This document shows positions 10,466 through 63,150 of a stretch of DNA of 64,000 bases, in pieces. Numbering within the stretch: the stretch's first letter is position 1; the number at the start of each line of letters is the position of its first letter. The position numbers and the translations under genes were made by a program. The notes beneath the pieces are model-generated. The model saw nothing but the letters and a program-made list of their open reading frames with translations. It was not told the DNA's origin and did no database searches. The stretch comes from Carcharhinus amblyrhynchos (lineage: Eukaryota): assembly GCA_965287045.1 (NCBI GenBank), contig OZ336872.1:31124001-31188000 (forward strand). The letters run 5' to 3'.

Positions 10466-10504
10466 TCTCGGTTCGACCGCGGACGCTCCCTGACCGGGAC
10501 TCAC

Positions 10505-11512: not shown

Positions 11513-11646
11513 CAAGCTTTCTGAGCACTGTTTCTTCATCAGGTGAAGGAGCAGTGCTCTGAAAGCTTGTGATTTCAAATAAACCTGGTGTCCACGTGGC
11601 CTCTCATCTTGACAACCCTAGTCCAACACCGGCATCTCCACATCAT
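11513..11646. mobile_element. Short palindromic Penelope-derived fragment with hammerhead motif
   Basis: CAAGCTTTCTGAGCACTG...TTCATCAGGTGA is followed by its inverse GGAGCAGTGCTCTGAAAGCTTG and the shared terminus AGTCCAACACCGGCATCTCCACATCA. Confidence 0.75.
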
Positions 11647-11969
11647 TGACATTCACCTTAAATCTGCCGCCTCTGATCCTCAATGCTTCAGCCAATAGGA
11701 ACAGTATTGTCTATCTGTTTTTGAACAGCCTCTTGTCATTGATTAGTGTTCATGATCATGAGCATTGACCTATGCTGTAATCAATATTTGCTGTGCTACA
11801 ATCAATTGTTTTCGCAGTATCATGCTGTTTTTAATGGTATTTCACATGCTGAACTGTTGTCCATTAAAAGATGCCAAGTTAATGAGCAATATGCAAACCT
11901 TGTGTTTCTCATAGCAAATTTTGGTTTTAGATGAAAATAGCGTGGCTGGATTATTTCTAATAATAGTGT

Positions 11970-12310
11970 TCTATTACACTTCCCACTGCCTCGGAAAAAC
12001 AGCCAGCATAATCAAGGACCTCATGCATCCTGGACATATTTTCTTTCTTCGGGAAAAATACACAAAAGTCTGTGATCGCATACTAACCAACTCAAGAACA
12101 GTTTCTTTTCTGCTACCATCAAGCTTTTGAATGGACCTACCATATATTAAACTGATCTTTCCCTGTACCCTATCTGTGACTGTAACACTATATTCTGCAC
12201 CCTCTCCTTTCCTTCTCCCTTATGTATTCTACGAATGGTGTGCTTTGTCTATAGAAATAATACTTTTCACTGTATCCCAATTTATGTGAAAATCAAATAA
12301 ATAAATTAAA
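11970..12310 (+). mobile_element. Rex/Babar-like LINE 3' fragment
   Basis: YTSHCLGKTASIIKD...; 3' end similar to 3540-3885. Confidence 0.7.
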
Positions 12311-25726: not shown

Positions 25727-25843
25727 CTACCCAGCTTTCTTTTCTGCACTGAAAGTAGATGTTCGCCGCAAGTTTTCTTTGACTTTGATGAATTCAGGGG
25801 CATTCTCCTGTTCCTCGCCACTCCTCTCCTGTTCTCGTTCCAG
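25727..25843 (-). CDS. FAM107A: FAM107A last coding exon
   Basis: cttgcag|CTG GAA CGA...GCT GGG TAG gives LEREQERSGEEQENAPEFIKVKENLRRTSTFSAEKKAG*, with the FAM107 APEFIKV.ENLRR motif. Confidence 0.96.
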   Translation of the reverse strand: MEREQERSGEEQENAPEFIKVKENLRRTSTFSAEKKAG

Positions 25844-26243
25844 CTGCAAGACAACATTATTTTAAAAAATTATGGTTTTCTTGCATGTCTTGGCTTGAAC
25901 TTGCTGCAGTTGGACCACAGGATACTTTACAGTGTTATGTATAGTTGGTACCAAAGTTGCACGTCAGATTAACAACTGTGTCAGTACCAAATAAGGAATT
26001 AATGGATTGTTCGTGATTTGCTGACATTTTCACAGTAACTTCATTGCAGTATTAGTGTAAGCCTACTTGTGACACTAATAAACTTTAAACATTATTAACC
26101 CATTGGGAACACTGGAAAAAAAACTTTCCAGAACAGGCTGCACCACCCTTGCTCATAATCCAAAACCACCAGCAAGTTTAATCTTTCCCTGCAATTTAAA
26201 TGAAAAATATTTGATATTCTTGCAATTTAATTTGATTTTAATT

Positions 26244-26550
26244 GGGGCAGCACGGTGGCACAGTGGTTAGCACTGCTATCTCACACCATGGGCCTGGGTT
26301 TGATTCCCAGCTTGGGTCACTGTCCGTGTAGAGTTTGCATTTTCTCCCCGTGTCCGTGTGGGTTTCCTCCAGGTGCTCCAGTTTCCTCCCACAGTTTGAA
26401 AGACACGCTGGTTAGGTGCATTGGCTATGTTAAATTCTCCCTCCATATACCTGAACAGGTGCCAGAGTATGACAACTGGAGGATTTTCACAGTAACTTCA
26501 TTGCAGTGTTAATGTAAGCCTACTTGCGACACTAATAAATAAACTTTAAA
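26244..26550 (+). mobile_element. V-SINE with the alternative (non-CR1) tail
   Basis: GGGGCAGCACGGTGGCACAGTGGTTAGCACTG head; tail GGATTTTCACAGTAACTTCATTGCAGTGTTAATGTAAGCCTACTTGCGACACTAATAAATAAACTTT. Confidence 0.9.
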
Positions 26551-28034
26551 CCGTGACAATCCTCTTTAATTTTCACCACACTTATGATTTTATACCTTGG
26601 CCAATATTTCAGGGAGTTAATATTGTTGCTAAATCAGAATGATTGATCACAGCATGGAAGGAGGCGATTTGTCCCATTGAGTCTGTGCTGGCCCTTGAAG
26701 AAATAATTTATCTACTGCCACTCCCCAGCCTTCTCCCATAGCCCTGCTTTTCTTCCCCTGTTCAGATAACGATCCACTTTCCTTTTGAAAGCCTCAATTG
26801 ATCATATACGTGGGCAGTGCATTCTAGATCCTAAACCTATGCCATGTGGAAAAAAAGGTTTTCCTCATGTTGCCATTGCTTCTTTTGCCAATTCTGTTTT
26901 CAATTTTTCCTGATGTGGGTTTTTCCACCAATTTTTCCACCAATGGTAATGGGTTCTTCCTATCTACTTTGTTCAGACCTCTTGTGATTCTGAATATCTC
27001 TATCAAATCAACATGTGATCACTTTTTCTGAAAAACTATTTGTTTCAAACTATGGACATGGGGCATTTGAACAGAGTTCGAGTACTATTATGGACAACTG
27101 TAAAAGGCATGGTTGTGAACTGCATTATACAAGGCAAATTCATTCTACTTTTGAACTGTTAAAATGGCATTGCACCAGGCGTGACCATAACTATGGGATA
27201 TGGTATTTAAAAAGGAAGAACCTAAAATTGCAGTCAATTATGAAAGCTGTTGAATGATTCTAGTACACCCTTCAACCAAGGCCAACCTGGGAAACAGACT
27301 CCAATCAGCCAGTCATTATCTTACATCTGAACAATCTCTAGCAGATGGACTATTCTTTCAAAATTAATAAATTTAGTTGAAAATACCCATGAAAAAAGGT
27401 GCTAATGATCATTCTAATCAATGTATTTGTTGCATTTTCTACTTCTGGCTAGTTGCCAAAAATATCAGCAATCCCTTGACATTTTCTTTCAAGCAAGCAC
27501 CCAACCTGCAAAAGCTGCAGTGACTGGATGAGCTTTTGTGACTGATTAAACTGTAATTGCAATCTTTCTGGATTGAGTCATGAGTCAAGAGTCTCCAGTC
27601 TCCCAGGTTCTCCTACCAGTGAACTGGGACAAAGATTCCCCTTATGCACGATTGGTGCATGTATCATCCTGGCTGCTGTTACTTGTTGCCAATCAGCATT
27701 TCCCGGTTCCTGCTGGTTGCCCCACTCCTCAACTTAGACTGGAGGTTACAAAACCCTGCTTCACAAGAGAGAAAAATGACACCACGAATTTACTGGCTGG
27801 AAACCACTAATTAAAAACAATGTTAAGTATTTAAATACCTATTTTCTCTGCAGACCTATGCACAAGCAAATCAGATGGTGAAGAAGCAAGACCTAGTGAG
27901 ATCCCCCCCCAACCCTTGCTCTTTCAATCCAACTTGCAAGTTTTGAGCCCTGCCTGACAGAGAAACGTTACTGGGAATAGGCAGGAATGTGGGGTGGGTT
28001 ATAGTCTAATTGATCACGATCTTACTGAATGGTC

Positions 28035-28150
28035 ACAGAAGGAGCAGCACTCCGAAAGCTCGTGATTCCAAATAAACCTGTTGGATTTGAACCTGATATT
28101 GAAACTTGTTACTGTGCCCACCAGACCAACACAGGCATCTCCACATCATT
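28035..28150 (+). mobile_element. Penelope-derived terminal fragment (half hammerhead)
   Basis: GAAGGAGCAGCACTCCGAAAGCTCGTG...AAATAAACCTGTTGGA...GGCATCTCCACATCA, inserted in a CR1 3'UTR and flanked by a repeated TTACTGAATGGT. Confidence 0.75.
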
Positions 28151-29365
28151 ACTGAATGGTGGAGCAGGCTCAAAAGCTGAATAATCTATTCCTGCTCTTA
28201 ATTTGTACATTGATATGGATGTGAGCTTCAAGTGGGTGTGTGCGTGCATGAAAATTGGAATGTTTTTATTATTGTTAGCAGGTTAATCCTAATAAATACT
28301 TTTTTTTTGTAAAAACCTCAGGAAAACTTGTGTTTGTATCCTTTGAGATATTTTGGTCTGAATTTTACAGAACTTCCCACCGGCAGGATCTTCAGGTCCA
28401 GCCAAAATCAAGCGACTTCTGAATGGATCACCACATTTTCCTGCCCTGCCCCCACCATCACAAAATTCCACCCAAGACATGTAAACAATTAAATACTTGA
28501 ATTGGCAAGCATATCGTAAGGTGATAAGAACTAGGAGCAGAAGTAGGTCATCTGACCCCCCCCCTCCCCCCAACCCCGAGCCTGCTCTGCCATTCAATAA
28601 GAACATGGCTGATCTTTTCATGGTCTCTGCTCCACTTGCCCACCCAATCATAACTCTTAATTCCTTACTGTTCAAAAATCTATGTTTGCCTTAAAAAGCA
28701 TTCAATGAGGTAGCCTCAACAGCTTCACTGGGCAGGAAGTTCCACAGATTCACAACCGCTTGGGTGAAAAAGTTCCTCCTCCGTTCACTTGCTAGCGATG
28801 CTTTTCCTTGCTCTTTATTTCATTACTTTTTCTCTCCCACTTCAATCTCTCTGTGCCAATATACGTCTCTCCCCTTGTGTCTCTATCCCCTTTGCTTTCT
28901 CTTGTATCATAACGACAGAGGTGTTGCCTTGGAGCAGAGGAGAACCAAATAGAATTTGGAGGAAAGACAGAGCTTTGTGAAGACTGTGGCTGGAGTGTCA
29001 GGTAGGTGGGGAAGAAGTCTTTGAACAAGTTTTTTTGGATTTGTTCAATAAATAATATTTGTGGCCCATCTGGTTAGTTTTAAGCAGTTAATAAACAATA
29101 GATCATTTTTTACATTCAATTTTGTTCCATCAACATGGCATGCCAATATATTACTAGACAAGTTAGATTTCTTGGGGTAATACTAAAGCAATGCAATTTA
29201 CTCACAGAAATACAACATTAATTAGTTTTCCTGATGAGACTGATACAGCTTTCCAGCTTAAAAAAGTCACATAGCCTAACTTTGTTATTGCATGCTCATT
29301 CTCCAGACTGCTTGTTCAGATATTACTGAACAACAAAATTCTCCAAAATATCTGCTCATTCTAAC

Positions 29366-29522
29366 CTGCTCTAATCTTTGCTGCCTTTTCAGGAGCTGAA
29401 GTTCAAAAGGCGATTTAACTTTGCGTGCCTCTTCTTCCTCCTTTCTTTGCCGAATCAGCTGATCTCTCCGCCTGTATTCCAGCACTCGTTGTAGTTCTGG
29501 CTTGTTTTCTGAACTTACACCA
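29366..29522 (-). CDS. FAM107A: FAM107A middle coding exon
   Basis: cttgcag|T GGT GTA AGT...TTA GAG CAG|gttaga gives [52 protein letters not shown]. 157 nt, phase 2 to phase 0. Confidence 0.96.
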
Positions 29523-29796
29523 CTGCAAGAGAAACACAAGGAAAGATTACATTGGCTCTCAAATCTCCAGTGGCTTTATCCATGGAAAGTCAAGACAAAT
29601 TTCACTCCCAATATATTCTTTTTGCAGGAGTTGGGTACACAGGGGGATTTTCTGCCTTTCACCATTACCTCTTTTTGTCATTTAATCCCACTTGCTTTCC
29701 ACTCTATTACTAATCCTGAAAATGCTGGAAAATTTTAGCAGCTCTGATGAAGGGTCTTCCTGATGTGAAACATTGGCTCTATTCACCACAGGAGTA

Positions 29797-30306
29797 TTCT
29801 CTTCCTGTTGGGGAACTCTTCAGCAGTCACAGGCATTCAGCTGCTGATCTTCAGGTATCCTTCTCCGAAGCGGTTTTCACGACACATGACAACGCAGAAT
29901 CACTAAGCAGAAACTGATAGCCAAGTTCTGCACACGAGGACAGCCTCAACTGGGATCTTGGGTTCATGTCACATTATCTGTATCCCCCATGTCTTGCCTG
30001 GGCTTGCAAAATCTCACTAACTGTCCTGGTTGGAGACAATACACATCTCTTTAACCCTCTCTCCATTCACATTGTCTGTACCTTTAAGACTTGATTACCT
30101 GTAAGACTCACACTCCAACCATTCTCTTGCAAATTGAGTTTGTGCCTATAGATGCCCTATTTGTGAACACAACTCACCTGATGAAGGGGCAGTGCTCTGA
30201 AAGCTAGGGCTTGTGCTACCAAATAAACCTGTTGGACTTTAACCTGGTGTTGTTACTGACTTCTTACTATGCTTACCCCAGTCCAACACCAGCATCTCCA
30301 CATCAT
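29797..30306 (+). mobile_element. Penelope-like element 3' fragment (GIY-YIG end plus pLTR)
   Basis: Similar to 52660-53191. Hammerhead core CTGATGA (30178-30184)...GAAAGCTA (30199-30206). Confidence 0.85.
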
Positions 30307-31979
30307 GTCTATTCTCTCTCTACAGATGTTATCAGATCCACTGAGATTTTCCTGCATTTTTTGTGTTTCAGATTCCAGCATCCACAGTAATTTGCCTTTG
30401 TCTATTACTAATCCTCTTTTGTTCTTTCCACCCCTCCACCACCACTTTCCCTGCCTCAATACTTAAATTTGATCATCTCTCTAGTCTTGTCCAGTCTACT
30501 GAAAAAAGAACCTGGGAATGTTCAATTGATATTTCTCTCCACATGTACTGCCTTGACATGCTGAATATTTTCCAACATTTTTTTCTGCCTTGATTACAGA
30601 GTTCCAGCATCTACAATGTTTTTATCTTTGTGAAAAGTAAGCCCTCTTCCCAAAATGATCTCCCATGTGTTGCTGTTAAGTTTCTGTTCTGATTGCAACT
30701 TTGTCTATTGTAAAGGTATCGTATTGGTTTAGCCTTTGTCCCAGTTTGGCTATTATGAAATTCCCATATCAATGTCTGTTGAGTAAATATCTGCTTTGCC
30801 ATACAGCTGCCAAACTAAGGCAAATGGAAACATTGTCAAATTTTACACAAACTTTTCTTCTCAAATTTGTTTTCCAGCAATGAGAAATTTTGAAACAATT
30901 ATTTTCAATACAGTCGTTGTAAGTTGGACCATACTTATCTTTGACATTATTTGAATTCTGCCAATTTTATTTCTTGTTTTGTACTTTGCAGTCAGAGTTA
31001 CATGGTCTGCCAGGGTATTGTTTATTTGCCAGAGAGGTTCGCAGTTACTAATTCGATATCTTATTAACTGAACATCAGCTGGATTTTTCACCCCGATTTG
31101 GACACCAGCCTGCTTGAGGTTTGAGATTTATTAACCTATAAATGGATCAATGAACAGGAGCAAAGACAAAGACATGCTTAACCAGCTCTACTCAGTAAAT
31201 TGGAAAGTAACCCGGATTGGGCACAAGGCTCCTAAAAATATTAGGAACGTTTAATAGAGAACAGTCGCATAACATTCAGGCTAATGGATATATTCTAAAA
31301 TGGGATCATTTTTATAAAAAGGAAACAGGAGCTTGCTCTACCATTGAAGGTAAGATCATAACTAAACTCGTGTATCAGCTACACTTTCCCACATTATCCC
31401 TTGATTGCCAAGAATCTATAGATACCCATAATAACTCAAGGTCACGAAGTGGCAAGTAACAAACTAAAGAATTTAATTGATTGAGAAGAACTATATAAAA
31501 CAAAGGGTTTACAGTACAGCTATATTAGGTCTACTAACAACACCCTGACTCCAACTGCAGCCTCTCAGGCAGTGGGATGCATGCCCTCTCCCCCAGTAGG
31601 GCCAGCTTTGTGTGATCTTAGTGCATTGGTTCTGACCTGGTCATATGGCCTGTGAAGGATTGTCCATTAAAGGGGCCATGCTACCACAATATCAATTTTG
31701 AATATAGTCCAACTGAGCAACCACAACCCTCTGATATGGAGAATTCCAAAGATTCATAACACTCAGTGAAGAGGTTTCTCTGAATCTCAGCTCTAAATTG
31801 CCTAACCATTATCCCAAGTCTTTGACTATTAGTTCCAGGCTCTCCAGCCAAGGAAAATATCTATCACCAACTACCCAGTCAAGCCTAAGAATTTGTACAT
31901 TTCAATGAGATCACTTCATACTCCAATCAAGAGAACAGACTCATCGCACTCAAGAACTGAGAGGGCTCCCCTGAGTGGA

Positions 31980-32790
31980 GGCATCAAAAACGGTAGGTAG
32001 AGAGAAAGTAGGGAACATTAGACTGGTGAGTCTAATGTTGTTACTAGGGAAGTTGCTAAAGTCCATTATTGAGGCTTTCATAACTCAGCATTTGGAGTAT
32101 AATCAGATAAAGTCAGCATTGATTTACAAAAGGGAAATCATGCACGACAAATCTACTGGAATTCTTTGAGGATGTAAAGAGCAGAGCTGACTGAGGAGAA
32201 CCAGTGGATGTGGTTTATTTAAACTTTCAGAAGGCTTTTGACAAGATCTCACATAACAGACTATTATATAAGAACATAAGAAATAGGAGCAGGAGTAGGC
32301 CATCTAGCCCTTCGAGCCTGCCCCGCCATTCAATAAGATCATGGCTGATCTGTCGTGGCTCAGTTCCACATTCCCGCCCTCTCCCCATAACCCTTAATCC
32401 CCTCTCTTATGTAAGGTTAAAGCATATGGGATTGCAGGGTAACATCGCAGATGGATAGAAAGCTGGTTAGCAGATAGGTAGCAAAGAGATGGCATAAATA
32501 GGTCTTTTTCTGATTGGCAGTGGCTAGTGGAGTTCTGCAGGGAAGAGGGAATTGAACGTATCATCCCCAAATTTGCAAGTGATACAAAGATGGGTGGGAA
32601 GATGAGCTGTGAGAAAGATGCATAGATTCTTCAGCGTGATTTGCACAGAATGTGTGGTCATCTACAATATAATGTGGATAAATGTGAGGTTATCCTCTTT
32701 GGTAGCAATAATGGGAAGACAGATTATTACTTTAAGGGGTGTAAATTGAGAGAGGTGGATACTCAGTGAGACTTTGGTGTCCGTGTGCCA
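31980..32790 (+). mobile_element. Old CR1 RT fragment, interrupted by a young CR1 3' end (minus, ~32270-32404)
   Basis: VDVVYLNFQKAFDKISH... resumes after an insert matching 5303-5435. Confidence 0.8.
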
Positions 32791-32799
32791 GTGACTGTT

Positions 32800-32950
32800 T
32801 GATGTGCAGATACTGGCTTTGGACTGGGGTAAACACAGTAAGAAGTCTCACTACACCAGGTTAAAGTCCAACAGGTTTATTTGGTAGCACAAGCCACTAG
32901 CTTTCGAAGTGCTGCTCCTTCATCAGGTAAGTGGGAGTTCTCGTGAACAG
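32800..32950 (-). mobile_element. Penelope pLTR fragment with hammerhead motif
   Basis: Minus strand CTTACCTGATGAAGGAGCAGCACTTCGAAAGCTAGTGG (32931-32894). Confidence 0.8.
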
Positions 32951-33381
32951 AATGACTCTTTTACAGGGGTCCTGCATGAAGATGCAGAACATTCTCCAGT
33001 AACTTGCTAAAAAAAAAGTGGCTGTTACACATGTAAGGTTGCTCTGTATTGTGCTCTTGAACTTGTCATCATTCTGTCCTCCACACAAAGGAGCTCCAAC
33101 CATGAAGCTTCAGGGAATAAATGTAATTTAATTTATAAACCAATCTTCCTGTAAACTTGCATATCCCAAATTGCTGATGTCAACAGATTTTGGTATTCCG
33201 TTTTAGAATTTTACGGATATCAGCACATTCTAAACCTTTGGGCTGCGAAAATCCAAATCGAGTTTGAAGGAAGTTGAAGTCTGGATACTCAGTTCAGAGG
33301 ATATGTGGGTTCTCGGCCTTTAGGTTGGATAATCCTGCTCTCTCGCTTTCCTCTTCCTTCCCCACTCACCTCATTAATTTA

Positions 33382-33692
33382 TCATAGGATTACTACAGTA
33401 CAGAAGGAGGCCATTTGGCCCATCGAGCCCGTACCAGCCACAATCCCAACCAGGCCCTTTTCCCATAAACCTACACATTTACGCTGTTAATCCCCCTGAC
33501 ACTAGGGTCAATTTAGCATGGCCAATCAACCTAACCCACACATCTTTGGATTGTGGGATGAAACCAGAGTACCCAGAGAAAACCCCACGCAGACACGGGG
33601 AGAAAAGGCAAACTCCACACAGTGACCCAAGGCCGGAATTGAACCTGGATCCCTGGTGCTGTGAGGCAGCAGTGCTAACCACTGTGCTGCCC
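33382..33692 (-). mobile_element. V-SINE, CR1-type tail
   Basis: Reverse complement of the full SINE, ending GGGCAGCACAGTGGTTAGCACTGCTGCCTCACAGCACCAGGG. Confidence 0.9.
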
Positions 33693-34071
33693 GTAATTAA
33701 ACAATTATTTATCACTGAAATGATCTCCTTGAGTAGGCCACATTATAATTGAGTAAATGGGAAGAAGTTAGGCACTTGGCTCAGCAAACCAGGAGATTAA
33801 AACAAGTTAAAAATTTGTCAAACAAATCCTTCCTGCATATTTAGAGGTAAAAGCTCTGTAATCTGTAAAAAAAATGCAGGTTGTGATATCAGAAGATCTT
33901 CCTAGCAGACTCATAAATAAACAGATTTTCCACTGAGCACGTAGACGGATTTTTAAATGATCAGACACCAAAAACATTCCAAATTTAGGACAAAATGGAG
34001 TTAAAATTGCATATTTCATTTTGCACTGAGTACCTCTAAAACAGAATTCATCGTTAAAAAAAAGAATTCCT

Positions 34072-34608
34072 TGAGTGGCACAGTGGTTAGTACTGCTGCC
34101 TCACAATGTCAGGGGCCCAAGTTCAATTCTGGCCTTGAGTCAGTGTTTGTATGGAGTTTGCACATTGTGTCTGTGTGGGTTTCCTCTGAGTACGCCGGTT
34201 TCCTCCCATACTCCAAAGACATACGGGTTACGTGGAGTAGCCATGGTAATTGCGTGGGGTAAACACAGTAAGAAGTCTCACAACACCAGGTTAAAGTCCA
34301 ACAAGTTTATTTGATAGTAAACCCACAAGCTTTCGGGGTTTGCCCTTCGTCAGTTGAGTGGAAAGTTCTGGTCTCAAACAGAGCGTACAAAAGGCACACA
34401 GTTGTTGGACTTCAACTTGGTGTTGAGAGACTGCTTACTGTGTTTACCCTAGTCCAACGCCGGCATCTCCACATCACAATTGCGTGGGGTTACAGGAATG
34501 GGTTGGGGGGGGCGCGAAATGTGGGGCCTGGGTAAACTGCTTTTTTGAGGAGTTGGTGCAGACTCAATGTGCTGGATGGCCTCCTTCTGCACTGTAGGGA
34601 TTCTATGG
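34072..34608 (+). mobile_element. V-SINE interrupted by a palindromic Penelope-derived insertion
   Basis: SINE head at 34072 and CR1-type tail at ~34600; the body is split at 34260/34478. Confidence 0.88.
34261..34477. mobile_element. Mini palindromic Penelope-derived element with hammerhead, 13-bp TSD
   Basis: TSD AATTGCGTGGGGT at 34248-34260 and 34478-34490; inverted ends; minus-strand CTGACGAAGGGCAAACCCCGAAAGCTTG. Confidence 0.88.
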
Positions 34609-37371: not shown

Positions 37372-37667
37372 GTTTAACATTTATTTGTTAGGTCTTACAA
37401 GAAGGCTTACATTAACACTGCAATGAAGTTGCTGTGAAAATCTCCTAGTTACCATACTCTAGCGCCTGTTTGGGTACACCAAGGGAGAACTTAGCATGGC
37501 CAATGCACCTAACTAGCTTGTATTTCCGACTGTGGGAGGAGACCACAGCACATGGAGGAAACCCACACAGACATGGAAGAACGTGCAGACTCTGCAGTGA
37601 CTCAAGCGGAAATCAAACCCGGGTCCCTGGCGCTGAGAGACAGCAGCGCTAAGCACTGTGCCACCCT
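37372..37667 (-). mobile_element. V-SINE with the alternative tail
   Basis: Plus strand AGGCTTACATTAACACTGCAATGAAGTT...CCCTGGCGCTGAGAGACAGCAGCGCTAAGCACTGTGCCACC. Confidence 0.88.
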
Positions 37668-39108: not shown

Positions 39109-39200
39109 CTCATGGCCAACACAACCCTCATTCTACCATTACCACCAAGCCAGGGAATCAGTACTGGTTCAAAGAAGAGTGCAACTAGCTACGTCTGGAG

Positions 39201-39453
39201 TGTTGCATAAGGGTCTGGCACATAAAGGGTTAATGCAGGACTAAGTGCAATGCCACCCCTACAGTGATGTAAGACAGCACGTGATCCACACCTAAGGGAG
39301 CACAGTATGGGACACAGCCATGTATAGAAGTAAACATGGAGACAGCTCCTAGCTTGAACCTTCACTGTACCAATGTATATAGTTTCTAGTAATTAATAAA
39401 TACTGTAGAACTATCCAAAACTCTGAATAGCTTAATAAGACTTAACACCTTAC
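39201..39453 (+). mobile_element. Probable solo LTR (Gypsy-like), ~250 bp
   Basis: Begins TGTTGCATAA, contains AATAAA (~39395), ends CCTTACA, and interrupts the old CR1. The TSD is not clean. Confidence 0.5.
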
Positions 39454-40766
39454 AAGGGGCAGCACCAGGCATATCTGAAAATGAGGCGCCAACCTGGTGA
39501 GGCTACAACTCAGGACTACTTGTACGCTAAACGGCATATGCAGCATACAATGGGTTGGGCCAAACAATCCCAACACCAATCGATCAGATCAAAGCTCTGC
39601 CCACCAACCTTTCCTCCATCATTAGGTCAGAAGTAGGAATGTTCAGCATCATTCACAATTCCTCAGGTACTGAAGCAGTCCATGCCATTATGCAGCAAAA
39701 CCTGGACAACATTTAAGCTGGGGCATAACAATTGTGTTACACACCAGAAACTGAACTAGCCACATAAAAACTGTGACTACAAGAGCAGGTAGGAGGCTGG
39801 GAACTCTGTGGTGTGTAACATCTCTGGAGTCCCCAAAGCACACAAATTGCCTGGTTGTGTATGACTCTAATAACACTCAAGAAGCTCGACACCATCCAGG
39901 ACAAAGCAGCCTGCTTGATCAATGCCACCTTAAATATTTACTTCCTCTACTGTTAGCACACAGTGGTAGTAATGTGTGCCATCTAAAAGATGCATTGCAG
40001 AAACTTACTAAAAGCTCCTTTGACAGCACTTGACCTCTATCACTTCAAAGGACAAGGGCAACAGATGCATGGGAACACCGCTGCCCTCCCAGCCACACAG
40101 CATACTAAGTTGGAACCATATGGCCATTCCTTCACTGACACAGGATCAAGATGCTGGGACTGCCTTACACTGTGGGTGTACCTGTTCCACATGGACTGCA
40201 CCAGTTCAAGGTAGCTGCTCAGCACCATCTTCTCAAGGATAATTAGGGATGAACATGTTGGCCATGCCTGTGCTGCTTATCCCTCTGTGAAAGGATTTTA
40301 AAAATCCCAAGTATACTACACCACAAATCCAAACCAGGAAAGGTAAAAACAAATATTTTAAAACATTCCCAATACTTTATTTGTAATATTACATAAAATA
40401 ATTAATCTTTGTTCAATTTTACAATTGTTTTCACATTAAACCATCAGAGCATTTACAATATATTTTGCAAGATTCTGTAATAAAAAGAAAGAAATCAGAG
40501 ATCAAAGGTTATTTGAGCTCAATGAGCAGTTGTCAAAAAGACAAGTTGTACAACACAAATATAAAATCTCAATTTCCAATGAAATGGATCACAATGGAAT
40601 TACACAAATTCCTGGGCAGATCTGCAACTTGGAATGTCTGGCTCAAAAAAATTCCCAGCAATATATTATCCAACATCTGTAAGTGCTATGGTAGACTTCA
40701 TCATTTTATATAGTTTCATAAAGTGTCTTGCTGAGCCAAAAAGGTTATAAGAGACAGCTTGCTTAC

Positions 40767-40936
40767 CGCTTCTGGTTCATGAGGAGTTCTCGATGCAGTT
40801 CTTGGTGACTCTTGGAGGCTTTGACAGGATTAAGGAGCTTCTTGGGCTTGATAAGCTCTGGGTTATCGTCAAAATAATCGGGTTCTGCCATGAGACTTCT
40901 GATCTCCGAGGGATTGTTGTGCCTTTCAGAGTACAT
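40767..40936 (-). CDS. FAM107A: FAM107A first coding exon (exon starts at 40941)
   Basis: catttag|CCTCC ATG TAC TCT GAA...AAC CAG AAG CG|gtaagc gives [56 protein letters not shown](R). The MYSE start is FAM107A-like. The three exons total 444 nt = 147 aa plus stop. Confidence 0.96.
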
Positions 40937-50049: not shown

Positions 50050-50595
50050 GTCAGTAATGACTCAGCTGGTAGCACACTCTTGCCTCGGAATCAAAAGGTG
50101 CTGGGTTCAAGGACCACCCAGGGCTTGAGCCGAAAAATCAAGGCTGATGCTCCTGAAACCAAACCAGAAAATTCTGGAAAATCTCAACAGGTCTGACAGC
50201 ATCTGTGGAGAGAGAATAGAGCCAATGTTTCGAGTCTGGATGACCCTTCGTCAGAGCTGACACTTTTACTGAGGAGGCACTGTTCTTGTCACTGTCTGTC
50301 AGATGAGATGACCTGAGGTCCTCTTTACCTTTCCAGGTGATTGTAAAAGATCCCCTGGCACTAGTTCAAAGAAAAGTGGGGGAGTTATTCCAAATGACCT
50401 GGCCAATATTTATCCCTCAAATCAACATGACAAAAACATTATTTGGTCATTATCACTTTGCTGTTTGTGTGCATATTGGCTTCTCTGTTTCCAACTTTAC
50501 AACAGTGACAATACTTTTAAAAAAATCCTTCATTGAGTGTAAGACACTTGAGACATCTGGTGGTTGTAAAAAGTGCTTTAAAAATGCACGTCTTC
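50050..50595 (+). mobile_element. Deu-domain SINE (SacSINE1/AmnSINE-like), interrupted at ~50155-50258
   Basis: tRNA-like head GACTCAGCTGGTAGCAC...GGGTTCAAG; Deu-like core GTAAAAGATCCCCTGGCACTA...CCTGGCCAATATTTATCCCTCAA...GGTCATTATCAC. Confidence 0.75.
50220..50258 (-). ncRNA. Minimal hammerhead motif, second family
   Basis: Minus strand AGCT-CTGACGA-A-GGGTC-ATCCA-GACTC-GAAAC-ATT-GGCT. A related copy is on the plus strand at 29740-29778. Confidence 0.65.
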
Positions 50596-52018
50596 GCCCC
50601 TCCCCTCCGAGAAATCACTCAACCGCAATATTTTTCAGTTAAGTATTTGTATATTGTAATCAGCAGAACTTTGCCAAATTCAACCAAATCCTTTTCGCAT
50701 CTGACTTTAGAACTACTCATTCTGGGGTGGTGATGATATTCACAGATAAGGTAGGGTTAGAAGCAGAATGTGTTAGGAAGTAATCTTGTGATGGTGATGA
50801 TCTGGGTCAGACAGATCAAACAAGTTGGCAAAATGGTGAACAATTTATTTCATGATAGCCAGGATTGAAACTATTAACAGACACTGAAGATGGCAAGTTT
50901 TAGTCTTCCCAATGTTCAAGGGTTCCAGCTGATCCAACAATTGGATGTCAACAAATGGGACACAGTCATATTGGCAGTTCACGCCCCGCTGCCACTAAAG
51001 CGAAGACGGAGAATTTGGCTCCCAGCCAAATCTCCGTAGACTGCAGCAGGACTAGAAAATCCCACCAACATCAATATTCCTAGGATTCTGGCCATAATCT
51101 TTTTGGTGCCCATTTCTAACCAGTCTGTGAATCAGAAAGCAAATATTGGGGTAAGTTACATCAAGATGTTATGAAGGTATACTTAGCTTATAATGAATTA
51201 AATTCACATAACACCCAAATTAACTTCATAAAAAGGTAGCCACAGACATAGAAAACACATCAATACAATTTGTTAATACACTCCAAAAGTGAAAGTGGAC
51301 AAAATTAGAAAGTTTCCTGCTCATAAAATATTGGGGAACAGGCCACATATGACATCTGATCTATCCTAATATCTGCATCCAATAATCAGCCAATTAGATT
51401 GACTACCTTGAATCAAATTTCCTGTTTGGTGCATATGTGCCCTGTGCCCCTAGAGAGCGAGACAGCAAATGAAAACGTTAGCCTGTAAATCAAAGGCGAG
51501 TAGGGGACTATCTAGTGTAGCTTAGGAAAAAAGGCCATCCGTTTATGTTCCAAATTTAACAGGCCTTGTTTGTTACACTTCCCAAATACACAATGAACTC
51601 ATCTTCCAGGTTATCTTTGACAATCTGATTTGTCCAACCTATATAAAAATTAAGATAACTCATTATTGCACCTTTCATACAAGTTATTTTGTTTCTTCCT
51701 GTATACCCTGTGCTGCAGTGTATCTACTATCAGGGAACCTATTATCTCCTTTGACCAGTGACTTCTTTCCTTAGCATTTTCATATCTCTACCCCAACTGA
51801 TTCCACATCTTGATCTTCTAATGAAGATCATCTCTCAGTACTACACCCATTACAACCTTAACTTACAGATGTACCTATCTACCAATCCATGTGAAATGTC
51901 AAATATCCTTGAATATTTAAGTCCCAGCCTTGTTCACCTTATAGCCATTTCAGAGATTTCACTTTCACAATAATTCATGTACAAACATACATCAGTAATG
52001 GATGACAGAATAAATATG

Positions 52019-53191
52019 GTAAAAAGTCTGACAACACCAGGTTTTAGTCCAACCTATTTATTTGATAATATACTCACAAGCTTTCGGGTTAGCCCCTTCG
52101 TCAGGTGAATGGAGTGTTCTGGCCTCAGACAGAGCATATAAAGCACAGACAGTTTAGAGATTACTGATTAGAATGTGAATCCTTACACCTAACCTGCTGT
52201 TCAAGACCTGAAGTGGCTGATAATGTGAGTGGAAGGAGCACTGATCACAGTTTAAAGAGATGTGTATTGTCTCCAGACGGTACAGTAAGTGAGGTTTTGC
52301 AAACCCAGGCAAGTCACGGGGGTTACAGATAGTGCGACATGAACCCAAGATCCCTGTTGAGACCGTCCTCATGCGTGCGGAACTTGGCTACCAGCCTTCA
52401 GGAGAACAGTGACCACAATACCACATAACCCTGCCACAGCAACCTCTGCAAGACATGCCGGATCATCGACATGGATACCATCATCACACGTGAGAATACC
52501 GTCCACCAGGTACATGGTAAATACTCTTGCAACTCGGCCAACATTGTCTACCTGATACGTTGCAAGAAAGGATGTCCCGAAGCATGATACATTGGGGAGA
52601 CCATGCAGACGCTACGACAACGGATGAATGAATATCGCTCGACAGTCACCAGGCAAGACTGTTCCCTTCCTGTTGGCGAACACTTCAGTGGTCACGGGCA
52701 TTCAGCCTCTGACCTTCAGGTAAGCATTCTCCAAGGCGGCCTTCACGACACACGACAGCGCAGAGTCGCTGAACAGAGACTGATAGCCAAGTTCCGCACA
52801 CATGAGGACGGTCTCAACAGGGATCTTGGGTTCATGTCGCACTATCTGTAACCCCCGTGACTTGCCTGGGTTTGCAAAACCTCACTTACTGTACTGTCTG
52901 GAGACAATACACATCTCTTTAAACTGTGATCAGTGCTCCTTCCACTCACATTATCAGCCACTTCAGGTCTTGAACAGCAGGTTAGGTGTAAGGATTCGCA
53001 TTCTAATCAGTAATCTCTAAACTGTCTGTGCTTTATATGCTCTGTCTGAGGCCAGAACTCTCCATTCACCTGACGAAGGGGCTAACCCGAAAGCTTGTGA
53101 GTATATTATCAAATAAATAGGTTGGACTAAAACCTGGTGTTGTCAGACTTTTTACTGTGTTTACGCCAGTCCAACACCGGCATACCCACAT
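52019..53191 (+). mobile_element. Penelope-like element: GIY-YIG remnant between ~380-bp inverted arms, 13-bp TSD
   Basis: TSD CAGAATAAATATG at 52006-52018 and 53192-53204. 52019-52397 is the near-perfect reverse complement of 52777-53155. Protein remnant CHSNLCKTC...NIVYLIRC...A*YIGETMQTLRQRMNE...HF...EDGLNRD. Confidence 0.95.
53064..53102 (+). ncRNA. Minimal type I hammerhead ribozyme motif in the pLTR (mirror copy on minus at 52072-52110)
   Basis: ATTCAC-CTGACGA-A-GGG-GCTAA-CCC-GAAA-GCTT-GTGAGT: stem I AUUCAC/GUGAGU, stem II GGG/CCC, palindromic loop-less stem III. Confidence 0.8.
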
Positions 53192-54929
53192 CAGAATAAA
53201 TATGAGCATAGGTCTTAGGAGCAGGTGTAGGCCATTCAGCCCAATGAGCCTGCTGCCGTTTGATAAAAGATCATGACTGATCTGGTGGTGCTCTCAATTC
53301 CACTTCCTGTTTAATTCCCATACACCAATGTAATAAATACAGACAACACAGCAATATCAAATAATGCAGCCAGAAGATGCAACTCTTCCTCAGTTTATTC
53401 TTGCCTTATCAGAGGCCCAGGCTCCGAATTCTTGACACCCCCCCCGGCAACCCCTCGCAGAACAGAATTTGGCCTGTTCAAGTTTGTACAGCCATAAGAT
53501 GACAAATTCCAAACTCTCACACAGTGACTGCGTGTATGAAACGCACAAAACAGATAACATAAAAACAAGAGAATGATTGAAAAAAAAAGTTGCATATGAA
53601 CCACTTGATTGGCATCTCATTCACCACCACCATGCAACAGCATGTACAAGGTGCACAGCAGCAACTCACCAAGGCTCCTTCCACAGCATCCACCAAACTC
53701 TATCAATCTAGAAGGGCAGATGTATGGGAACACATCTTTTCCATGGTCCCCTCCAAGCTACTCAAAATCCTGACTTAGGAATAAATTGTCATCCCTTCAC
53801 TGTTCCTGAGTCAAAATCCTGGAGCTCCCTTCCTAACAGCAATAGGAATAGACATACACCTCATGGATTGTAGCAGTTTAGGGTAGCAGCTCACTACCAG
53901 CTTCAAGGGCAAATAGGGATGGGCAATAAATGCTGGTCCAGCCAACAGTATCCACAGCCCATAAATGAGTAAATTAAGAAATGATACAGAGTCACAGTAT
54001 GGGTGCAAGTAGTAGAGGGAGGAGAAAAGTGAGTAGATAAAAATGAGTGGAAGTGTGTTAAGGAAATGCTCAGAAAAGGATGTAGCCTCTTTTTTTGTAA
54101 ATATGTTTCCATTCCTGTAAATCAGTTCAGTAGGATTGTTGCAGGTAAATTAATTCAACTGCTTAATATGCTCAATGCCGGAATAACCAGTTCTTTGGAA
54201 GATGCATCACCCTGAAACAGAATAATCTGGCACTACCTTTCAAAAGGTATTTGATTTGGAGGTTTAGCACTTCATGATTTAATTATTAGTCATACTGAAC
54301 TTTTTAAACAATGCTGTTTATTTAATTAAGGATGGGTGGTACACAATCTGTCACTGGAAAGGACAACACTGAGGAACAATGCTGTCAGAAGATCATTCAG
54401 GCAATGATTTAGGTCGAAGGCAAGACTGATTTCAAGTCCAATTCAACAAATAATCCTATTTTTATTTAGTAATGGGAATAGATTTTAAACCTAAATTAGT
54501 GAGTCCGATGCTAAATGAATATGAACAGTTTTGAGGGTCTGTAGCTTTAAAAGTCAGGGAGAGCCCATGAATTTTATAAGCAACTGTTTTAAAAAAAAAA
54601 TACTTTTTTAAGCTAAATTAGGTGGAGTACCTGACTTTCTCCCACAAAAGCGTTTGAAATCTGTAGCCCTGCAGATTAGTAAGGCTCTAACACAACTGCC
54701 TTGTTGGGCAATAACATTACTGACAATGATATGCTTTCAATCGGTTAACTGAAACCACAATGCTTTGAGTACTCGCTACACCTGTGAGCTTCAGATGTAA
54801 GCATCACCAGTGAACTCAGAACATTTACATCAGATTAAAGAACATTATTGACAGAACGTTGCTTTATTGAAAAAAGGTAACTCACTTTGGTTCTGTCCTG
54901 GCACCCTTAAAAGACCTGGGAAATCATTG

Positions 54930-56814: not shown

Positions 56815-57555
56815 GAATGTGGAGTTGCCAGCATTGGACTGGGGTAGAAGTCTCACAACACCAGGTTAATTTGATAGCAAAAGCCACTAACTTTCAGAGC
56901 GCTGCCCCTTCATCAGATGAGTGGGAGTTCTGTTCACAAACAGGGCATATAAAGACACAAACTCAATTTACAAAATAATGGTTGGAATGCAAATCTTTAC
57001 AGGTAATCAAAGGTACTGACAATGTGAGTGGAGAGAGGGTTAAGGACAGGTTAAAGAGATGAGTATTGTCTCGACAATCACCAGGTAAGGGTGTTCTCTT
57101 TCTGTTGGGGGACACTTCAGCAGTCACAGCATTTCACCTCTGATCTTTGGGTAAGTGTTCTCCAAGGCAGCCTTCACGACACAACAGTGCTGAGCAGAGA
57201 CTGATAGCCAAATTCCGCACACGAGGATGGCCTCAACTGGAATCTTGGGTTCACGTCACACTATCTATAACACCCACGACTTGCAAAATCTCATTAACTG
57301 TTCTGTCTGGAGACAATATACATCTCTTTAACCTGTACTTAATGCTCTCTCCACTCACATTAAGACTTGATTACCTATAAAGACGCGCATTCCAACCATT
57401 ATTTTGTAAATTGAGTTTGTGTCTTTATATGCCCTGGTTGTGAATAGAACTCCCCTCACCTGATGAAGGGGCAGCACTCCAAAAGCTAGTGTTTTTTTCT
57501 ATCAAATAAACCTGTTGGACTTTAACCCGGTGTTGTGAGACTTCTTATTGTGTTT
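56815..57555. mobile_element. Older palindromic Penelope-like element with two degenerate hammerheads
   Basis: Inverted arms ~56830-57072 and ~57305-57550; duplication ATGCCTCA at 56807-56814 and 57556-57563; CTGATGAAGGGGCAGCACTCC(A)AAAGCTA at 57460-57488. Confidence 0.85.
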
Positions 57556-60500
57556 ATGCCTCACAAGTACAGATATTTACATCACATCCCAATTTCTTTT
57601 ATTCATTCATGGAACATTAGTGAATCAGATGCGTTTTTACTACAACTGGCAATGATTTCATGGTCATCATTAGACTTTTAATTCAAGATTTAAAAAGAAT
57701 CAAATTCAAATTTCACCATCTATCACAGTGAGATTCAAACCCAAGACCCCATAGCATTACCCTGGATCACCAGCCTACGACAATATCACTGCGCTACCGC
57801 CTCTCCTAACTTCTATATGCCTTCAATAGAAAAAAAATCATGTGGAATGACTTTTCTGTCACTTTCTATAGCTCAGGAAATCAGTTGAAACCACTTTCTC
57901 AAATTTTTTTGATCCAAAAGGAAAAGGTTGCCAAAGCTTTTTGATGGACACCTGTTTGAAAACACATTGGCCAAGAAACTTGAGTGAACCTGAAAAATCA
58001 GGATGTTAGCATCGTACCAGTCATCATGTATTATTTATACTTCCTGCCTGTTACCAACATGAGTCAGGCATACAGCCAGTGCTCCATGGCCTATTTGCTG
58101 TCTGTCCACCTGTTGGTGGACTATTGGGTCTCCAATACCACTTAAAGGCAGCCAGCACCACAGCTGTCCTTAAGCTACAGATACCAGAGATAAAACTCTG
58201 TACACGGAAAATGCCACTGCAAGTACTGAGAGGACACCAAGCTTTCTGATGGTGCTCTGCAGGCTTGGGGTGGAAGGCACCCTCTTACCCCAGAAGGTGG
58301 AAAGCTGTCTAGGCAACATTCCCACTGCCCATGGGAAGACATTGCAGAGATAATCATTGCCCAGGATCTCAGCTCCCAGCATAGGACTGCAAAGCTGAAA
58401 GTTCAATGACCTGAGCTGTCATGGTAACAAATACTATTCTCTTATTCTTCATTCACACCTCCACCACCTCAGACTCACTAAACACAAGACTCACCTCCCT
58501 CACTTTCCTTCAGTCTCCTACAATCATTGCACAAAATTCATTACTCTTCCTTCTTCCCAGACTCTGATGCTTACCATTATTCTAGCCCACACTTCCCCAC
58601 ACCTCATGAATTTGGAAGGAGAGGTGATCTTATTGAAGCATATTGATCCTGAGGAGATTTGGCAGGGTAGTTACTGCAGGACGTTTCCACTTGTGGGAGA
58701 GACCAGAATTAGAGGGATACATTTTAAGAATAAGACGCCTACCATATTTTAAGAATAGGGCATCTACCATTTAAGACAGAGGTAAGAGAAGATTTTCTTT
58801 CTCAAAAGGTTGGTAGCATGTGAAATTGTCTTCCTCAGAAAGCAGCGTAGGCTGAGTCATTAGGCAGAGTTGGACAGATATTTGATAGACAAGGGAGTCG
58901 AGAGTTATGGGGGCCAGAGCAAATAGGAAAGTGGATTTGAGACCACAACCAAATCAGCCATGATCTTCTAACTTGGCTGATTCCCTCAGTCCTATATGGC
59001 ACAATACACACCAGCCATTTAACCACAACAGGCATGCACTGTATATCTACAGACTCTCACTAACCCACTTCCTTCTTCCTCACAAGAAAGAGTGCCTTTG
59101 ACACCAAATGGCACAAGGCAGAGGAGGCAGAGTCTGCCTGCACATCTACTTCCAATGTTAAATATGTAGTGGCTCTCACAGGCTGACAGAATTCTAGTCA
59201 ACGTCATAGTGACTTACAACTCACTCCACACACTCAGCAGGACTAACTGTATAATTTCACCAACCATTTCTCTTTGCTTTCCTTTTACACCAGAAGCATC
59301 ATTGTGAGTAAACAAACTGTGGATGTACGTCTACCTCTTGGAGAAGGCCAAAAATTTTGCTTTGCTCCTGATATCAACCTACTTTTATATAATTTACAGC
59401 CAGTTTGGAAGGTGCAGAGTGATAGTAATGGCAACCTGCAACATTTATAAGCCTTAATTAGAACCATCATCCTTTAGTACATATCCAACTCAGCAGCAAA
59501 TTGTCACTGCAAAAAAAAATTCAAAGATCCTTAAACAGCATCTTCTAAACCCATGACCACGTTCACTTAGAAGGACAATGGCAATGGATACATGGGAACA
59601 CCACCACCACCTGCAAGTTCCCTCCAAATCACTCACCATCCTGACTGGGAAATATATTGCCGTTCCTTCAGTCACTGAGTCAAAATCCTGGAATTCCCTC
59701 CCTAACGGCCACGCATAGTGCATGGACTGTAGCGTTTCAAGGAGGCAGCTCACCATCACCTTCTCGAGGGCAACAAGGGATGGGGGTGATAAACACTGGC
59801 CAGACAGTGACGCCCATGTCCCATGATTGGATAAAAACCTCCAGTCTGTTTTGAATAGTCTAAAAGGAAACTAAAAGGATTAAATTGCTAAGAAAATTCC
59901 ATCTACCAATATTGTCAGCCTTTGTGGATAGATGAAGTGCTCAGGCGCCTGTCCTCCAGGCCCCATGAACTTTGACACAGATCACTGCTTGGGGTAAAAG
60001 AGGAAAATAAAAGGACAGCTCAGCAGTAGATCGGAATGCATGAGGGTGAAGGTATAATGTGAGCCATTGAAGGGGAGCTATATTAGGATTAGAGGGAAAG
60101 CAGTTTTCTGGGGAAGAGGGGGAATGTGCCGGTGCACATGTACATGGTTTTGCAGCAATCCGGAAAGTACTTTGCAACGAAGTAAACAGGCCATCTCCAA
60201 CTTTGGGAAAGTTCAGTGTCTTGTAAAATGCAAGCAACCCATGTGTTAAAAAAGTAGCCCTCAGAGGAACCTGTGCAGTGCAACAGAAAATTGAGAGAAT
60301 ACTGGCAATCGCTGCAGTTAATAAAAACCTTAAGGCCCCTACTTGGATTCCTGGGGCTACTGAATGAAGGCTAAGGGTGTAATTCATGATCCTGTGCTTG
60401 GGTGTGGTTGTTAAGTGTATGTCTCATTATGCATTTAAAGATTACACACATACTGCTGCATGCTAATACTGCCAGCTTTTGTGCCTCATGCAGGTCTCAT

Positions 60501-62211
60501 CCTTCAGGAATCTAAAGTATCCTGTGAAGACATGGAGGAGGAACTCATGGCAGCAAAAATGCAGCAGTCTCTGTACGGCAATTTTAAAGGTTTGATGGAT
60601 GTTTTCTTCTTCCAGTAATGCTCTAACCTGTGAATTCAGGCTGAAGATATTGTGGCTAAGGATAGTTTAATTCCCAGATCAGGGGATCAGTTGAATAAGT
60701 TTAATATTTGCAATGTCCAGCTGGAAACTGAAGGTTTGCAGCTATATGTAATTATTCTGTAGTGGCATCAAGCTTATTATGTCTCAAATAGCGATCTGAT
60801 GAATAAGATGATCCCATCTTTCTGGCCACAAAATTCATGTTTTGCATACACTCAGCAAACTAGCCACAATATCAGCCACAACATGCTGTCCTTGAAGTTC
60901 TAGGCAGCTTCAATCTTTCATCGCACAAATGCATAGTTTACTTATAAAAAGGACGCAAGGCTTGAAATAGACGATATGGGCTGTGTTGCAAAGAACTGCA
61001 GGATTGTAACACATGTCTACTATTTGCATCATGAGGTTGGTTCATGATTTGGAGTGACATCAACAGTGCAGGTTCAATTCTCATACCAGCTGAGGTTATT
61101 CATGAAGGCCCACCTCCTCAACCTTGCCCCTGGCCTGAGGTGTGATGATTCTCAAGTTAAATCACTACCCATGGTCATCTGGGACTATGGTGACTTTACC
61201 TTACCTTCGCATCAGATGCTTAATACATGTCGAACACCCACGGTGGCAGCTTACTTATGTATACTGTGCAAGTTGATCACCCATTTTGGAGGGATTTTAA
61301 AGCTTCATAGGTTAACTTGTATTCCATCTACGGTATTTCCCTGTAGACACAATGGACTAAAGGGCCTCATTTTGTGCTGTAAAACTCTGACTACATTTAA
61401 TTTTTGATCAATGTTACCTTATACTAACTGTTTGCAGCAATGATGCTTCATTTTGAAAAGTTATCCAAATTTCCAAGGGCACTCAGCCTATTTTCTGTGA
61501 AATAAACAATTATGGAAATTTGGGAACAAGTTATGCCTGCAAGAACAATACATCCAAATCAACTCAAACATTTTACAATCGATTATCTCTCCGCCTAAAC
61601 ACATTCCCACTTGTTATCATGGCCCCACCCAAGTTGGTGAGCCTCTCATACCAGATTCCTGCAATTCCACTTGCTTAGGGAGACGCTCAGACTTGTGACC
61701 AGATTTTCAGGAGTATCCAGGAACAAGATTATTTCTCTAATGGGTCAGAGCGATTTCTTTGAGTGCTTTGTCTTCACTGTTCATTTGAGTGGCATCAATG
61801 CAAGTCATGCCAAACAATTTTTTTTAAGAAAACAAAGCTCCTCTGATCAGTGTTCCTCAGCAGGCCCCTGAAATGATAGCCATTTGGAAAAGTGGCCCCC
61901 AATTTTCTACTCAATCTTATTGAACACAAAATCTGCCATGAACCAATTCAATCAGGCAGCAATTCAAAAACTAAATAATGCGTCCTTTAGGAAATATTCC
62001 TTGACATATTTAGGAATTGTGACTTAAAATTTGATTAATATAGCTAAAAAAAATCATAAAAAAAGCATTTTAACATCAGCGTCATTGCACCCCCCAACCT
62101 GAAAGTAATCCAATTTCACGTTACTGAAGATAACTTATTTAAAAGCACAGAACAATTTTCTGGTTAGATTGGCATACAGCAAGTAGTTCAATTTTTAAAC
62201 AAATATTCAAA

Positions 62212-63150
62212 TTTTTAAGTTTGCTGATGACACCACCGTTGTGGGTTGGATCTCAAACAATGACAAGTCAGTACAGGAAAAAGAGATAGAGAATCTGGTG
62301 AACTGGTGTGACAACAATAATCTCTTCCTCAATATCAAAAAAAATGAAGGAGATAGTCACATACTTAAGGAAGCATGTCTACATCATGATGTGGGAATGC
62401 CGGCGTTGGACTGGCATAAACACAGTAAAAAGTCTGACAACACCAGGTTTTAGTCCAACCGATTTATTTGATAATACTCACAAGCTTTCAAGGGGACTGC
62501 CTCTCCATTCACCTGACGAAGAGGCAGTCCCCTCGAAAGCTTGAGAGTATTATCAAATAAATCGGTTGGACTAAAACCTGGTGTTGTCAGACTTTTTACC
62601 ATGTCTACATCAACAGGGATGAATTAGAAGTGGTCAAGAGCTTCAGGTTTTTAGGTCCAAATCACCAACAACCTGTCCAGGTCCCTTCATGCAGACATTA
62701 CAGATAAGAAAGCCCACCAACGCCTCTACTTTTTCAGGAGATCAAGGAAATTTGGCATGTAAGCTATGATTCTCACCAACTTCCACAGATGCACCATAGA
62801 AAGCATTCTTTCTGGTTGTATTACATCTTGGAATGGCTCCTGCTCTGTCCAAGATCGCAAGAAATTACAAAGGGTCATGAATGAAACCCAGTCCATCACT
62901 CGAACCAACCTCCCATCCATTGACAGTTGTCTACACTTCCTGCACCCTCGGAAAAGCAGCCCACATAATCAAGGACCCCCACGCACCCCAGACATTCTCT
63001 CTTTCACCTTCTTCCGTCGGGAAAAAGATACAAAAGTCTGAGGACACGTACTTACTGGCTCAAAAACAGGTTCTTCCCTGCTGCCATCAGACTTTTGAAT
63101 GGACCTATCTTGCATTAAGTTGATCTTTCTCTACACCCACGCTATGACAG
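62212..63150 (+). mobile_element. Rex/Babar-like LINE RT and 3' fragment
   Basis: KFADDTTVVG...KAHQRLYFFRR...ILTNFHRCTIESILSGCITSW...; interrupted at 62387-62599. Confidence 0.85.
62387..62599. mobile_element. 213-bp palindromic Penelope-derived element with hammerhead, 13-bp TSD
   Basis: TSD CATGTCTACATCA at 62374-62386 and 62600-62612. Hammerhead ATTCAC-CTGACGA-A-GAGG-CAGTCC-CCTC-GAAA-GCTT-GAGAGT at 62507-62548. Confidence 0.9.

Follow-up and report, generated by a model that had tools for sequence, protein, structure and literature searches.

Minimal hammerhead motifs in a 64-kb stretch of shark DNA: probable pLTR ends of one endonuclease-bearing Penelope-like element family

The hammerhead motifs scattered over the window, by which we mean the whole 64-kb stretch of shark DNA analysed here, are very probably the pLTR ends of one endonuclease-bearing (EN) Penelope-like element (PLE) family, present as insertions that are truncated and in many cases mirror-imaged; selection for the predicted dimer-type self-cutting fold is likely to have acted on only a few source elements. 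Motifs of this kind have already been published, including their occurrence in fish PLEs, covariation and dispersed copies; such minimal hammerheads (min-HHRs) were described in the fish elements Neptune, Poseidon and Xena (Cervera and De la Pena 2014, PMC4209133). One cartilaginous fish is named among the genomes sampled by Li et al. 2026 (10.64898/2026.07.22.740005), and a search of main texts in a limited literature collection found no shark-specific description of Penelope hammerheads. The shark family offers a test bed in which many young subfamilies, with tens of thousands of copies, make it possible to separate selection on source elements from the decay of copies, and its intact full-length elements allow tests of what PLE hammerheads do. 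Small testable additions to the published picture are the hypervariability of stem II and the gathering of 5' ends just before stem I.

Motifs and insertions in the window

The first-pass annotation of this DNA had placed the hammerhead motif, or part of it, at ten sites. When the window sequence was re-inspected, the motif was found whole or partial at every one of them, together with an extra partial arm, ending at 62489 on the minus strand, that had been absent from the list. These 12 motif copies come from 8 insertions, and most are damaged; 52104 and 53070, 56916 and 57460, and the pairs at 11.5 kb and 62.4 kb are each the two arms of a single inverted insertion. The copies, the insertions and the host gene are as follows.

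Full hammerhead cores (n=9): 11542(-), 30178(+), 32926(-), 34353(-), 52104(-), 53070(+), 56916(-), 57460(+), 62513(+)
Partial arms without CTGAYGA, broken inside the core (n=3): 11536(+), 28040(+), 62489(-, arm end)
11513..11645, both strands: inverted PLE end insertion; minus arm with core 11542, its stem II absent or broken; plus arm begins inside the core and stops at the long (tail) end
28037..28148, plus strand: 5'-truncated PLE end, antisense in the FAM107 intron; begins at A9 (no CUGANG), C17, long end, 12-bp target duplication
29783..30305, plus strand: 5'-truncated PLE with a remnant of the endonuclease C-terminus, 3' UTR and core 30178 (A17, stem I disrupted at its second pair); sits inside a copy of a second family, 7-bp duplication
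32800..32944, minus strand: solo PLE end, sense in the FAM107 intron, with intact core 32926; A17, stem II of 4 bp with one G.U, stem I of 4 bp with wobbles
34255..34476, minus strand: inverted insertion, sense in the FAM107 intron, of a minus copy with core 34353 (U17, A.G mismatch as first stem I pair) and a plus-strand tail arm at 34404-34476; 13-bp target duplication
52011..53193, both strands: young inverted insertion with 387-nt arms 98% complementary and intact cores 52104(-) and 53070(+); carries the linker and GIY-YIG endonuclease end (about 52400-52848, plus strand, with stops); 13-bp target duplication
56817..57560, both strands: older inverted insertion with cores 56916(-), in which GTT replaces GCT (C16.2 to U), and 57460(+), in which G12 is lost (G12 to A)
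62387..62608, both strands: young fold-back insertion with core 62513(+), stem I disrupted at its second pair, and partial arm end 62489(-); 13-bp target duplication
29739..29784, plus strand: second-family minimal hammerhead, core 29744, decayed; the family resumes at 30308-30368
50151..50259, minus strand: second-family minimal hammerhead, core 50254
25727..40936, minus strand: host FAM107-family gene, probably FAM107A by sequence and gene order; coding exons about 40936-40766, 29522-29366 and 25843-25727; Pfam DUF1151 E 1.5e-14

Only 3 of the 12 motifs (32926, 52104 and 53070) are fully intact. A strict minimal-hammerhead descriptor, which combines the core with stem I of at least 3 bp, stem II of at least 3 bp and 15.2-16.2 pairing, matches 4 distinct window sites (32926, 52104, 53070 and 56916) and none in each of 100 dinucleotide shuffles; an Rfam search of the window returned no hammerhead match at E<=5. 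The motif consists of a CUGANGA ... GAAA ... UH core without loop III, palindromic 15.2-16.2 and a helix I of 4-6 bp. Stem I, on which the first-pass annotation had not remarked, pairs ATTCAC or ACTCAC with GTGAGT or GTGGGT over up to 6 bp. Among unselected copies, which were collected with a core-blind profile search of 784 kb, the extra base between A9 and 10.1 is A in 55 of 55, G10.1 is present in 54 of 56, and C11.1 in 46 of 61 (12 have T via CpG decay). The young insertion at 62387..62608 is predicted by folding to form a single long hairpin on either strand, so that the motif would be buried in fold-backs of this type.

The second family, which had been overlooked earlier, has an ACGT-type palindrome, with C-G instead of G-C, around the same core. 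Its copies terminate at a pyrimidine tract followed by AG. The nested pair at window 29739-30368 places two same-strand cores 434 nt apart, whose AGCU and ACGU-type palindromes would not pair with each other.

The parent element and its relatives

The motif-bearing repeat runs upstream into a 3' UTR and the end of a GIY-YIG endonuclease. At another locus, L134, there is an 893-aa ORF whose last 86 residues are matched by window 52588-52845 at 97% identity, and this single ORF comprises an RT domain (Pfam RVT_1 E 1.2e-9), a C-x4-C-x2-C linker that fits the CX2-5CxxC form expected between RT and endonuclease, and, at its C-terminus, a GIY-YIG endonuclease with CCHH residues; the endonuclease motifs were identified by eye, and a Pfam search of the ORF gave no endonuclease match. 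The full-length layout is motif, about 95 nt, ATG, 893-aa RT-endonuclease, 3' UTR and motif. Identical motifs lie in the two flanking pLTRs of L134, 3,026 nt apart, and the motif is likewise found in both pLTRs of L121. Partial tandems, an inverted truncated copy, a tail at one end and target duplication, all traits of EN+ PLEs, are present as well. By the criteria of Craig et al. 2021 (PMC8557442), who describe the RT-endonuclease Cys linker as common to the Neptune and Nematis clades, the element is, as judged from its sequence, an endonuclease-bearing Penelope-like element with a Neptune/Nematis-clade linker, and a label such as 'Neptune-type' would rest on that linker. This linker is present here, whereas it is described as missing in the Penelope/Poseidon clade. 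The initial identification of the sites as PLE minimal hammerheads is thus supported: they are pLTR ends of one PLE family whose full-length relative has the motif in both pLTRs.

The shark motif closely resembles the PLE min-HHRs as described by Cervera and De la Pena (PMC4209133). Both have a type I core without loop III, palindromic 15.2-16.2, an extra base between 9 and 10.1, and a G10.1-C11.1 pair; both occur in the two pLTRs, in many variable families with covariation, and mostly as dispersed single or opposite-strand copies. However, helix II is 3-5 bp here and 7-8 bp in Schistosoma, and at least 49,673 copies of one family are counted here, compared with about 4,000 in coelacanth and 9,000 in Xenopus, numbers that come from different search methods (PMC4209133). 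Non-LTR retrozymes (Li et al. 2026, 10.64898/2026.07.22.740005) also contain type I hammerheads derived from PLE pLTRs; according to that description they form tandem arrays, whereas the window copies are dispersed or inverted. A retrozyme reading, for which at least 2 consecutive tandem hammerhead units are required, was rejected, as there is no tandem array here.

Variation among copies: decay, stem II and position 17

Copies decay after insertion, and they do so fastest at CpG sites, including those of the catalytic guanines G8 and G12. Among unselected copies, 12 of 61 have A in place of G12 and 6 of 54 have A in place of G8; the two positions lie in CpG, and the core is intact in 20 of the 52 copies that cover it. 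Outside the ribozyme, the pLTR has stretches that vary as little as the core in the unselected copies; core invariance alone therefore shows only descent.

In 149 intact-core copies, mostly selected by pattern, pairs 10.2-11.2, 10.3-11.3 and 10.4-11.4 switch between G-C and A-U with G.U intermediates, and 10.1-11.1 is G-C or its CpG-decay product. Among 53 distinct copies of equal length, two-sided cells number 13 against 7.0 in shuffles (6/500) and the covariation score is 0.211 against at most 0.126 for slid structures, while the counts of pairs with change and of pair types are not above those of shuffles (361/500 and 209/500, respectively); all these controls leave the relatedness among copies in place. 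The rate of change is the stronger argument. In young copies carrying 200 nt or more of upstream flank (n=24), stem II and its loop differ at 0.29 per base, whereas 187 upstream windows of 13 nt have a median of 0.036 and reach 0.175 at most, and the common stem II variants all retain 3-5 pairs. In young copies, stem II changes about 8 times faster than the flank while staying paired, and this combination supports selection on the source elements. The observation made from the window alone, that stem II varies while remaining paired, is thereby supported by compensatory G-C/A-U changes with G.U intermediates and by a rate above that of the flank; stem II variability had also been noted in words by Cervera and De la Pena (PMC4209133).

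It had likewise been stated that position 17 is T, C or A, but never G, in the window. This holds in 12 of 12 copies, whose states derive from 3 source states across 8 insertions. Genome-wide, exact cores (n=49,673), counted with one pattern with four endings for which reversed controls gave at most 1 match each, have T at 30,323, A at 12,097, C at 6,606 and G at 647 (1.3%), so that the refuting condition set in the first-pass annotation, G17 as frequent as chance would give, does not hold. The core-blind profile search yielded T 39, A 12, C 10 and G 0 (n=61 unselected copies). The G17 copies are scattered over many stem II types, and no G17 subfamily was seen. Thirty G17 loci were inspected, of which 6 have a partner arm that can be read, and the partner carries A, C or T in 5 of these 6, as expected if G arose after or during insertion; the pair L011/L012 has G17 in both arms. 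G17 is about three times commoner than an A14G control (199 copies, 0.4%), and this excess indicates that either some G17 sources or a mutation-context effect exist. The same set of three motif variants repeats at regular spacing at G000:C1:5.33-5.53 Mb, which points to a large tandem duplication and hence to slightly inflated genome-wide counts.

The flank tree is weakly resolved (37 of 55 inner branches are open), and independent changes at position 17 are therefore few and uncertain. The source-lineage evidence at this position consists of a few T/A/C switches on a weak tree and is, alone, only suggestive. The proposal of selection in several source subfamilies is supported by the rarity of G17 and by the fast yet paired stem II; the pattern within the window, on its own, mostly reflects shared descent.

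Copy ends and a model of insertion

Most insertions are head-to-head pairs. Across all loci 114 such pairs were found, of which 91 are classifiable, and in 85 of the 91 one arm ends long, just before the ATG, and the other short, about 35 nt earlier. Many pairs are flanked by target duplications of 12-15 bp; in the window, those at 28.0, 34.3, 52.0 and 62.4 kb measure 12-13 bp. The 5'-truncated copies, adjacent inverted copy, one-end tail and target duplication are shared with EN+ PLEs as these are described in PMC8557442 and by Arkhipova et al. 2013 (PMC3846280); with respect to those descriptions there is no difference of kind, and the rule of one long and one short end is here given as a count (85/91). 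Two fixed copy ends about 35 nt apart are also reported for the green anole's Poseidon element, PAc (Frangieh et al. 2024, PMC11167929). In PAc, however, the ORF begins at stem II and copies end 111-118 nt into the ORF (PMC11167929), whereas here about 95 nt separate the cut site from the ATG, which is where the long end stops.

If cut RNA were copied, copies should begin immediately after position 17. In young subfamilies 5' ends are not in excess there: 90 are counted at the cut site, against 96 at 8 nt upstream and 218 at 5-6 nt downstream. Among the first 30 loci of each set, junctions with unrelated DNA number 8, 5 and 4, where by eye one junction in each of the last two sets derives from the element; scaled up, these give about 24, 13-16 and 22-29; there is no spike, and a footprint of a few tens of copies could escape such a count. 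In older subfamilies, cut-site starts number 87 against 62 in a single control, a count inflated by internal indels, which by eye account for about half of 30 loci. Cut RNA as a template is unsupported for PAc as well, in the experiments described (PMC11167929).

Starts instead gather just before stem I. Of 82 unselected arms, 20 begin 2-19 nt before C3, whereas five other 18-nt bins hold 5-9 each, and 29 of the 82 extend into the first 22 positions of the profile. Among core-bearing copies, 45 of 133 begin 3-8 nt before C3 (39 of 87 older and 6 of 46 young ones), a pile-up that may be inflated by divergent upstream sequence. Such starts would fit an RNA whose 5' end is the first base of stem I and which is copied uncut. 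Uncut RNA served as the template of the anole element in vitro (Frangieh et al., PMC11167929), and an internal promoter has been described for Penelope in Drosophila (PMC2377424).

These features may be combined in the following mechanism. Within one element RNA, the two pLTR motifs would pair through AGCU and swapped stem I strands, and the hammerhead of a source element would cut slowly or with the help of the element's protein. Most genomic copies would be made from uncut RNA that begins at the first base of stem I, and once inserted they would become methylated and lose the catalytic guanines. An extension, which we put forward tentatively and consider rather doubtful, is that the ribozyme constitutes the 5' extremity of the element RNA, with transcription starting at the first base of stem I, and that stem II and loop II serve as a paired hypervariable lineage tag, the fastest part of active subfamilies that are 96-99% identical. 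Were the ribozyme at the RNA 5' end, cutting would take off the cap and about 35 nt. The hypervariability of stem II and loop II might arise from slippage in the hairpin, from template switching or from evasion of host silencing.

A different RNA template for each arm was also considered: young pairs in which both motifs are readable nearly all match, and one differs. In this inverted pair, L034/L035 (G000:C1:442902 and 443193), the arms carry stem II of different subfamilies, and it would stem either from a single event with two RNA templates or from two separate insertions.

Some features of the copy ends resemble splice signals. In young subfamilies a splice donor (GTGAG) can be read in the 3' strand of stem I from the base after the cut, and older subfamilies have only a poor donor there. 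Some 22 nt before the ATG, and 73 nt past the cut, there is a pyrimidine-rich AG (L134:2435-2507; window 53097 onward), and the short copy end is near a likely branch point of the candidate 73-nt intron thus outlined. Contigs of 4 runs of uncertain type contained no spliced joint of this candidate. It can be likened to the 75-bp 5' UTR intron of Drosophila Penelope (PMC2377424).

Alternative explanations

Between subfamilies, position 17 switches among T, A and C, and not to G. Every stem II variant found at least 3 times retains G8 and G12, which lie in CpG, and N7 is free to change; most of these copies had been collected with a pattern that includes the core. The NUH and G8/G12 constraints are catalytic rules and not binding rules. 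Both observations tell against the idea that the element retains the fold as a structure for protein binding or promoter activity and that its hammerhead chemistry is vestigial, which we regard as improbable. The idea does agree with the absence of a footprint at the cut site, with the finding that catalytic mutants of the anole element had no effect on in vitro insertion (PMC11167929), and with the spread of Naiad PLEs, described as lacking canonical hammerheads (PMC8557442). Selection on a few source elements for a self-cutting fold is preferred.

A second alternative concerns the host gene. The copies at 32.9 and 34.3 kb were noted in the first-pass annotation as being sense to the FAM107A pre-mRNA and ~1.4 kb apart, and it was suggested that they could dimerise in cis. 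Their arrangement is as described: both are sense, both have AGCU, and they lie 1,427 nt apart in one intron, between exons at about 40.8 and 29.5 kb. In the double hammerhead model, each core pairs with the partner's cleavage strand (PMC4209133). On paper this is possible for one half-site, in which the 32926 core and the 34353 cleavage strand could form 6 bp, including two wobbles; the reverse half-site (34353 core and 32926 strand) has an A.G mismatch at its first pair, beside the cut. Nor is folding favourable. With only contiguous pairs scored and tertiary contacts ignored, the double hammerhead of 34353 and 32926 is predicted at -10.6 kcal/mol, weaker than the two monomers on their own (-12.8) and than the best mixed fold (-18.7), and homodimers of young copies are predicted at -16.5 to -18.3 kcal/mol. 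Moreover, 34353 is enclosed in a long hairpin closed by its own tail arm, and the published minimal hammerheads are reported to cut poorly even as exact dimers (PMC4209133) or to cut only with the element's protein (PMC11167929).

A check for strand bias of intact motifs in introns had been proposed. Sense depletion was not seen in the 434-kb FHIT intron, set by coding exons at G000:C3 32.483 and 32.917 Mb on the minus strand, where 20 arms are sense and 18 antisense, the corresponding numbers being 7 and 5 for solo copies and 4 and 3 for intact cores; this absence of bias comes from one intron and a small sample with low power. Taken together, it appears very unlikely on this modelling that the two copies dimerise in cis, cut the pre-mRNA and alter host expression. 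The window copies would thus be without function in FAM107A RNA, and a regulatory role in this gene is unlikely.

Copies antisense to the host transcript offer it a strong splice donor (CAG then GTGAGT; window 30173-30184, minus strand), because the complement of the 5' strand of stem I and the core start reads as one, and this would provide a route to exonisation.

That the whole pattern is shared ancestry and chance only is scarcely credible, for although there are just 8 window insertions, and three states would omit G by a roughly one-in-four chance, stem II changes about 8 times faster than the flank and is still paired, and the same core occurs in a second, unrelated family whose palindrome has C-G instead of G-C.

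Other repeats and genes in the window

At 10135-10557 and 10560-10710, a 39-nt tandem array lies beside a minus-strand exon that resembles the start of an acyl-CoA oxidase gene; a Pfam search of this putative exon gave no match. Two inverted CR1-like LINE fragments occupy 5303-9358, with arms 94-96% complementary over about 1.3 kb. At 15986-18947 a broken LINE, probably of the RTE type, lies on the minus strand and retains remnants of endonuclease and RT.
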